From a virus (Duplodnaviria; Heunggongvirae; Uroviricota; Caudoviricetes), in the IMG/VR virus record IMGVR_UViG_2671180417_000002, positions 1-10,158 of that record: DNA of 10,158 bases; one strand, written 5' to 3'. The position numbers are program-made. Below, one piece after another: positions 9,001 to 10,158 of this stretch (position 1 is the first letter of the stretch; the number at the start of each line of letters is the position of its first letter).

Positions 9001-10158
9001 CGGAAAAGACGGCAACGGTGAAGATATATTGCTCCCTACCCCCGACAAAGATAAATGCATGTTTGACGCAGAACACAAAATAACAAAAAGGTTTGATGAA
9101 ATCTGCGCATTGCAACAAAAACTTGAAGCCAGGAAAAAGGATATAGAATCAAACGTATGGGCTGCTTTGAACTCAGTCACAACAGTTAAGCGACTTATTG
9201 AAGTTTGGCCTGAAAGCAAAGAGTTGCTACCAAAAGAAGCAGATAAAGCAAGTGCAGCACTTCCTGCTTTACGGGTAGAAGATTTGAATAAGATGATTGG
9301 ACTTCCTTCCGAGGCCGCATAATCGGCCTTTATTTTTGGCATAAACAACAGAATAAACACTGCACTGTGTATTCATTCCAACGAGTGAATACACGGAGCA
9401 ATGTCGCTCGTAACTAAACAGGAGCCGACTTGTTCTGATTATTGGAAATCTTCTTTGCCCTCCAATGTGAGGGCTTTTTTATATGCATACCAATAACGCT
9501 TCACTAGAGGCGTTTTCGTTATGTGTAAATAAATAAGGAGCACACCATGCAATATGCCATTGCAGGGTGGCCTGTTGCTGGCTGCCCTTCCGAATCTTTA
9601 CTTGAACGAATCACCCGTAAATTACGTGACGGATGGAAACGCCTTATCGACATATTTAATCAGCCATGAGTTCCCAAAAATGGATAAAACACTTATGGCT
9701 ATCCAGACTAAATTCACTATCGCCACTTTTATTGGTGATGAAAAGATGTTTCGTGAAGCCGTCGACGCTTATAAAAAATGGATATTAATACTGAAACTGA
9801 GATCAAGCAAAAGCATTCACTAACCCCTTTCCTGTTTTCCTAATCAGCCCGGCATTTCGCGGGCGATATTTTCACAGCTATTTCAGGAGTTCAGCCATGA
9901 ACGCTTATTACATTCAGGATCGTCTTGAGGCTCAGAGCTGGGCGCGTCACTACCAGCAGATCGCCCGTGAAGAGAAAGAGGCAGAACTGGCAGACGACAT
10001 GGAAAAAGGCCTGCCCCAGCACCTGTTTGAATCGCTATGCATCGATCATTTGCAACGCCACGGGGCCAGCAAAAAAGCCATTATCCGTGCGTTTGATGAC
10101 GATGTTGAGTTTCAGGAGCGCATGGCAGAACACATCCGGTACATGGTTGAAACCATTG

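Follow-up and report, generated by a model that had tools for sequence, protein, structure and literature searches.

A Rare 40-Codon cIII Allele in a Lambdoid Prophage of Escherichia coli Ends Upstream of kil and Lacks the Predicted kil Shine-Dalgarno Sequence AGGAG

RESULTS

Early region of a lambdoid prophage

The window analyzed here, meaning the whole stretch of 10,158 nt, is the full public contig CYEO01000070.1 of the Escherichia coli draft assembly GCA_001285285.1; the two sequences are identical. It encodes the early region of a lambdoid prophage and is oriented so that pL transcription proceeds along the + strand. The following features surround cIII and kil:

6080-6787, + strand: cI
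8365-8637, + strand: N
8699-9322, + strand: Nmad5-family gene, 207 aa ("nucleotide modification associated domain 5," 232 bits)
9457-9482, + strand: terminator-like hairpin and T-run (GCCCTCCAATGTGAGGGC TTTTTT) upstream of cIII in the direction of the pL transcript, found by consensus scan only
9897-10158, + strand: gam, 98-aa short form, cut by the contig end (PF06064, 191.5 bits)
Opposite (-) strand: cro, cII, O, P, ren, ninB, and more genes

Within the pL operon, the gene order is N, Nmad5, cIII, kil, gam, which places cIII at its usual site, after N and immediately ahead of kil and gam. The Nmad5 gene stands where lambda carries ral and ea10, in the interval from N to cIII, and it is broken into two parts in the L130 prophage. 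We found no near-exact match to the full window among phage records and complete E. coli genomes, with a best coverage of 77%; because no such record or genome covers more than this, we regard the window as a typical mosaic. The 138-aa long Gam of the lambda annotation is not encoded in the window, which has only the 98-aa Gam starting at ATG 9897. The C-run directly after the kil stop (9824-9827) has four C instead of five, so the ATG at 9778 yields just 21 aa (region 9778-9843) and there is no long Gam. The same four-C run, likewise without long Gam, is present in the SCU-104 and 2013C-4465 prophages, where the PGAP annotation gives the 98-aa Gam.

The 40-codon cIII allele

The cIII gene of the window and the features that define its 3' end are as follows:

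9534-9592, + strand: cIII translational control RNA (Rfam RF01804, Lambda_thermo), including the Shine-Dalgarno (SD) sequence TAAGGAG and the cIII ATG
9547-9669, + strand: cIII coding sequence, 40 codons plus TGA (RefSeq WP_064763431.1, Pfam PF02061)
9586-9657, + strand: domain of CIII residues 14 to 37 (placed from alignments and PMC1838920)
9655-9657, + strand: codon 37, TTT (Phe) versus CTT (Leu), C-to-T change at 9655, private to the window lineage
9666-9788, + strand: 40-aa third-frame ORF whose ATG is made by the G-to-T change, overlapping the new stop (ATGA) and spanning kil
9667-9669, + strand: premature stop TGA at codon 41, where every 54- and 46-aa allele has GGA; G-to-T change at 9667
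9670-9687, + strand: cIII tail codons 42 to 46 (VPKNG), no longer translated, and a second in-frame stop, TAA 9685-9687
9709-9711, + strand: site of the lambda-type cIII stop (TAA after codon 54)

Reading from ATG 9547 to AAT CAG CCA TGA (stop at 9667-9669) gives the 40-aa product MQYAIAGWPVAGCPSESLLERITRKLRDGWKRLIDIFNQP. A 10-nt spacer (GTT CCC AAA A) separates this stop from the kil ATG at 9680, and the two genes do not overlap. An earlier sequence-only reading had described exactly this ending, and both the sequence and the ORF list agree with it. The same reading held that lambda CIII is longer and overlaps kil, as is indeed the case in NC_001416, where the 165-nt cIII encodes 54 aa and its last 32 nt overlap kil. 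It also proposed an alignment with lambda; lambda, HK630, SCU-104, and 2013C-4465 all have GGA where the window has TGA.

Upstream of the stop, the gene and its translation signals are well preserved. The Lambda_thermo RNA is intact, matching the whole model (positions 1 to 59) with 88.5 bits (gathering score, 50; E = 1e-21). The 40-aa CIII matches Pfam PF02061 with 94.1 bits (cutoff 25.7), its residues 2 to 40 corresponding to model positions 1 to 39 of 42. In NCBIfam, neither CIII (40 or 54 aa) nor Kil has a match, which makes that comparison uninformative.

Other reading frames cross the junction. An 89-aa ORF at 9554-9823, which the sequence-only reading took as a hint of an ancestral overlap, is the kil frame left open to an upstream ATG; lambda has an identical ORF, so we dismissed it as a trace of an ancestral overlap or fusion. 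The third-frame ORF has no SD sequence, and it is probably not expressed. Read-through, recoding, or frameshifting into kil was likewise dismissed, since nothing favors it and a second stop lies downstream.

Descent from the common 46-aa haplotype

Aligned to lambda, the window carries six substitutions within 9655-9686, and the remainder of the 410-nt alignment from the cIII SD sequence on contains a single substitution and a single 1-nt indel; divergence is greater in the 40 nt preceding the SD sequence. Four of the six substitutions (9672 C to T, 9675 A to C, 9678 G to A, and 9686 C to A) constitute a common haplotype, found, for example, in the SCU-104 prophage. The changes at 9672, 9675, and 9678 are synonymous in the cIII frame (V42, P43, and K44), and the change at 9686 both turns cIII codon S47 into a TAA stop and converts Kil Q3 to K. 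The CIII protein of this haplotype is therefore 46 aa long (WP_001198858.1), and the TAA at 9685-9687, which lies six codons beyond the TGA in the window, is its marker.

The window and the SCU-104 allele differ at only 2 of 291 nt: C to T at 9655 (L37F) and G to T at 9667 (G41stop). Judged from these alignments, the ancestor of the window allele is the common 46-aa allele, not the 54-aa lambda allele. The sequence-only reading had attributed the short gene to a single GGA-to-TGA change. The G-to-T change does create the stop, but because the haplotype carries TAA 9685-9687, reverting it would restore a protein of 46 aa rather than 54 aa. Both L37F and the downstream TAA came to light in the alignments made here and had gone unmentioned in that reading.

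Three known forms of CIII place the allele more precisely. Lambda CIII (NP_040620.1, 54 aa, an FtsH/HflB inhibitor) is identical to the window protein at residues 1 to 36 and 38 to 40, and its gene has the same SD sequence, ATG, and Lambda_thermo RNA and the same pL operon position directly upstream of kil and gam; the window differs from it by L37F, by a stop at codon 41 instead of after codon 54, and by having no overlap with kil instead of 32 nt. The 46-aa allele (WP_001198858.1) shares with the window the GTT CCC AAA ... TAA tail, Kil Q3K, and an upstream Nmad5 gene, whereas it retains GGA at codon 41, L37, an 8-nt overlap of cIII with the kil ATG, and an intact kil SD sequence AGGAG. More distantly, P22 C3 (NP_059599.1, 52 aa) and the BTP1 and Oslo CIII proteins (~50 aa) have the core ESLLxRITRKLRxGWKRLxxILNQPGVP and the position before kil in common with it. 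They differ in their tail beyond GVP, which is shorter and of another sequence, and in their kil, which is longer and is overlapped by 20 nt, and P22 C3 has a different N terminus.

The G-to-T change at 9667 also abolishes a CCAGG Dcm site (9664-9668 is CCATG in the window and CCAGG in lambda). We rejected a Dcm hotspot as the origin of the change, because deamination would give G to A, not G to T. The mutated G pairs with the Dcm-methylated C of CCAGG, and a natural G41R variant (P0013, presumably GGA to AGA) would be the classical deamination product.

Distribution and rarity

The exact 40-aa protein with F37, WP_064763431.1, was present on three contigs of one prophage lineage, two of which differ by 2 mismatches over 4.8 kb. 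In terms of sources, the window allele is found in three assemblies or four samples, including two assemblies besides that of the window. The 40-aa form with L37 (P0001, an NCBI "MULTISPECIES" entry) was listed on 53 contigs, a figure that includes partial proteins at contig ends, and 46-aa and 54-aa CIII each occur on at least 1,000 contigs. Such contig listings per CIII protein are not usable as allele frequencies. At contig ends, CIII is annotated as "partial" at each length between 38 and 51 aa, and because such proteins mimic truncated CIII, we checked real stops in the DNA. Draft contigs very often break within the cIII tail, for example, exactly after ...CAGCCAG, probably because several prophages per genome share cIII and diverge just after it, which would raise apparent counts of truncated CIII.

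Checked in this way, the TGA with L37 is real in at least six other prophage contexts, which vary in repressor, replication module, and integration site and keep O, P, cII, cI, N, int, and xis intact. The L37 alleles (prophages L128 to L133) have the same G-to-T change, 10-nt kil spacer, and ATGAG as the window, but they differ from it in having L37 rather than F37, in occurring on three haplotypes, in their immunity, replication, and integration contexts, and in their intact O. Each of the three local haplotypes with TGA is one base, the G-to-T change at 9667, away from a common GGA haplotype. The sequence-only reading had allowed that related functional phages might share the 40-aa cIII or that lambda cIII might end at the same point; the 40-aa end with L37 does occur in several prophages whose early regions look intact, while lambda does extend to 54 aa. 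The TGA is also present in the complete genome CP043747.1 and several other assemblies. The stop is genuine and not a sequencing artifact, given that the public contig is identical, that two further assemblies carry the allele, and that TGA recurs in at least six other prophage contexts.

The allele is nonetheless rare. Haplotype-specific 81-nt queries found no exact match to the TGA allele in 1,815 to 1,965 junctions of 5,426 complete RefSeq E. coli genomes; the best matches of the TGA queries, and of the corresponding queries for the kil-ATT allele described below, had one mismatch, at the G. The TGA allele was also absent from 130 sampled IMG/VR junctions, about a fifth of which carry the TAA that marks the 46-aa allele, and it was not found in GTDB species representative genomes or JGI metagenomes. 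This rarity fits a mildly deleterious variant.

Translation signals of kil

The G-to-T change lies within the initiation region of kil, for which we annotated the following features:

9662-9700, + strand: predicted RNA hairpin AGCCAUGAGU / ACUUAUGGCU around the kil SD remnant and AUG (minimum free energy [MFE] prediction)
9666-9670, + strand: kil SD remnant ATGAG (AGGAG in lambda; ribosome binding site [RBS] annotated there in lambda imm21, OM418625)
9680-9823, + strand: kil coding sequence, 47 aa, Q3K relative to lambda (Pfam PF06301)

Kil is encoded by a full-length ORF with an ATG start, matches PF06301 with 72.6 bits against a cutoff of 27.6, and has Q3K as its sole change. The CPT annotation of lambda imm21 places a kil RBS, AGGAG, 9 nt before the ATG; its first G is the base mutated here. 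The window has ATGAG at this site, and kil's own SD sequence AGGAG is thus missing. The sequence-only reading was right that the overlap between the genes is lost, but it did not recognize that the mutated G is also the core of the annotated kil RBS.

Computed duplexes with the anti-SD sequence at the 16S 3' end weaken from -6.9 kcal/mol for AGGAG to -2.2 kcal/mol for ATGAG. In the predicted hairpin at 9662-9700, the G-to-U change replaces a G.A mismatch by a U-A pair, and the predicted MFE is -14.0 kcal/mol for the window (z = -2.76 relative to shuffled sequences), compared to -8.9 kcal/mol for lambda and -10.0 kcal/mol for the 46-aa allele. Lambda kil has been reported to be still expressed and toxic after the cIII start codon was destroyed (PMC3961180), from which it follows that kil normally initiates independently of cIII. 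With the SD sequence weakened, the hairpin strengthened, and cIII ending 10 nt ahead of the kil start, kil is predicted to be translated less on its own. The Kil protein itself prevents assembly of the FtsZ ring and is lethal to induced lysogens (PMC3961180).

A parallel allele with kil ATG changed to ATT

A second G-to-T change at the same junction produces a 45-aa CIII (P0035; L142 to L146, locus coordinates 534 to 538). Here, AAT GGA T becomes AAT TGA T, so that one change turns cIII codon 46 into TGA and the kil start from ATG into ATT. Like the window allele, this allele creates a TGA in the cIII tail and strikes a kil initiation signal; unlike it, the signal struck is the kil start codon rather than the SD sequence, and the stop falls at codon 46. 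The kil-ATT allele is found on at least three local haplotypes and on many E. coli contigs in NCBI, more than the TGA-41 allele, but the roughly 1,950 junctions in complete E. coli genomes did not include it. As comparators that would truncate cIII while sparing the kil signals, we looked for Q39stop, for which none of the 24 contigs read had a real stop, and K44stop, for which one real stop was found. The allele look-up covered truncated CIII proteins only.

Domains retained and lost in the 40-aa CIII

The sequence-only reading held that the retained part of CIII contains the FtsH-inhibitory core, and the 24-residue domain from residue 14 to residue 37 is present. Kobiler 2007 (PMC1838920), citing Kornitzer 1991, describes the domain as essential and sufficient for FtsH inhibition. 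Residues 14 to 37 of the window protein equal those of lambda, apart from L37F at the last residue of the domain. Alanine substitutions reported to abolish CIII activity are S17A, R24A, L26A, R27A, and R32A; S17, R24, L26, R27, and R32 are all unaltered in the window CIII.

Beyond the domain, the window protein ends at P40 and has lost G41-V42-P43, which are conserved in the CIII proteins of lambda, Salmonella, P22, BTP1, and Oslo. The GVP segment (the end of NQPGVP, to residue 43) is not family defining, yet it is the most conserved part of CIII after the helix. That the differences from lambda in codons 42 to 44 are all synonymous hints at constraint on the segment. Farther on, CIII tails vary in both length and sequence (46 aa in E. 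coli and Salmonella alleles, 52 aa in P22 C3, and about 50 aa in BTP1 and Oslo); those of P22, BTP1, and Oslo diverge beyond residue 43, and residues 47 to 54 are missing in very common alleles. From these comparisons, the 40-aa CIII is probably partly or fully active rather than inactive.

Variation within the domain occurs naturally as well. Residue 37 is proline in 54-aa CIII alleles of the IMG/VR contigs L153, L155, L156, and L160, and a proline at the helix end in 54-aa alleles suggests weaker constraint on position 37 than would be expected within the "essential domain." A very common CIII variant of 40 to 41 aa (996 contigs; P0004, P0007, and P0012) diverges after R32 (…GWKRVEVLLCAMK), which puts a mosaic junction inside the "essential" domain of residues 14 to 37. 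A 39-aa CIII in L148 and L149 (locus 401-520 and downstream) is followed by unrelated DNA after codon 39; in L148, there is an rve-family transposase gene on the opposite strand, and insertion or rearrangement displaces kil from its usual place.

A lesion in O in the window prophage

The O gene of the window (4385-5303, - strand) is frameshifted, with ORFs of 135 aa and 124 aa in place of the 312-aa O of relatives. The break is a 20-bp deletion of one origin iteron unit (AAAACGAGGGAAAATCCCCT, kept in L128 and L129), with its junction at 4909/4910. Unless the deletion is an assembly collapse, the prophage is probably replication defective. Since TGA coexists elsewhere with a 312-aa O and complete early regions, the stop is older than the O lesion. 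If the deletion is real, cIII would be unselected in the window lineage, because the prophage could not replicate, and the extra L37F change would fit relaxed selection on cIII.

DISCUSSION

Taken together, these data are best explained by a rare natural cIII allele that arose from the 46-aa haplotype by G to T at 9667 and C to T at 9655, with a CIII that is likely functional and a lowered initiation of kil; we consider this explanation reasonably probable. It starts from direct observations, namely, a stop of clear ancestry, present in several assemblies and prophage contexts, in a gene that keeps intact translation signals and residues 1 to 40. The 40-aa peptide would keep the amphipathic helix (residues 14 to 37) and may still inhibit FtsH competitively while serving as its substrate, thereby shielding CII, possibly with altered potency or stability. 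Our expectation of CIII activity follows from three points: the loss lies outside the "sufficient" domain, residues 47 to 54 are absent in common alleles, and P22-like tails differ. The same G-to-T change would cut independent translation of kil, as the change from AGGAG to ATGAG weakens the SD sequence and the hairpin over the kil start becomes firmer. Because cIII now ends 10 nt short of the kil AUG, the remaining Kil synthesis may need ribosomes that have just finished cIII. In the window contig, the allele is probably without effect, because O is frameshifted and the prophage is likely defective.

A different account would treat the allele as loss-of-function decay, in which cIII of a defective prophage is unselected, TGA and L37F are steps of pseudogenization, and the peptide is inactive or unstable. 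The split of O by the 20-bp ori iteron deletion, the presence of two changes in 12 nt of cIII amid otherwise almost identical sequence, the loss of the conserved GVP, and the rarity of the allele are all consistent with decay. However, the TGA precedes the O lesion, given the 312-aa O and complete early regions of other TGA prophages; the domain reported as sufficient is still present; and the RNA that controls cIII translation is intact. Residue 37, moreover, is naturally proline in some 54-aa alleles, and the five residues S17, R24, L26, R27, and R32 are unaltered. We therefore consider decay unlikely. A sequencing or assembly error in the draft contig is far less probable still and would be very surprising: the source is a short-read draft and G to T is a typical oxidative-damage artifact, but the identical allele is found in three assemblies or four samples and the TGA occurs in the complete genome CP043747.1 and several assemblies.

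It is also conceivable, if rather doubtful, that kil is the selected target and that G to T at 9667 has been kept, or has recurred, to lower toxic Kil or to tie Kil to cIII translation. By extension, the junction might be a hotspot where lysogens repeatedly disarm kil (SD sequence ATGAG, start codon ATT) with the cIII stop as a side effect, an idea that we hold equally doubtful. Such G-to-T changes at the junction could then persist only because CIII can do without its overlapping tail. The G changed at 9667 forms the core of the annotated kil RBS, and by computation the SD duplex loses 4.7 kcal/mol while the hairpin gains 4 to 5 kcal/mol. TGA appears on three haplotypes, each one base from a common haplotype; the sister ATG-to-ATT allele likewise appears on three haplotypes, and on more contigs; and nonsense comparators that spare kil are scarce (none in 24 contigs read for Q39stop and one for K44stop). 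Kil is toxic to the host, preventing the FtsZ ring from assembling and killing lysogens upon induction (PMC3961180). On the other hand, the search is subject to ascertainment bias, since truncated CIII proteins alone were looked up, and both alleles were absent from about 1,800 to 1,950 complete-genome junctions, with no sign of a sweep. Many of the listed contigs may be clonal, and pL is repressed in a lysogen, so that the gain is doubtful. Sequenced E. coli assemblies number several hundred thousand by estimate. Given the huge number of assemblies, recurrent changes at tolerated sites are expected.

Under the explanation that we favor, a rare natural allele with a likely functional CIII and lowered kil initiation, the window holds an ordinary, already catalogued allele (WP_064763431.1) of a well-known gene and no new kind of system. 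As it stands, the allele carries little weight, as the gene, its product, its regulation, and the exact protein are already public and CIII tail length varies widely. The natural alleles of 40, 45, and 46 aa provide population-level support for an old genetic result, that the C-terminal tail of CIII is dispensable. The window allele also illustrates how one base in a gene overlap has two coupled consequences, here, a cIII stop and a changed kil RBS, which protein annotation by length alone hides. If the kil-directed reading is true, the junction would be a compact natural case of hosts or prophages damping a toxic early gene.
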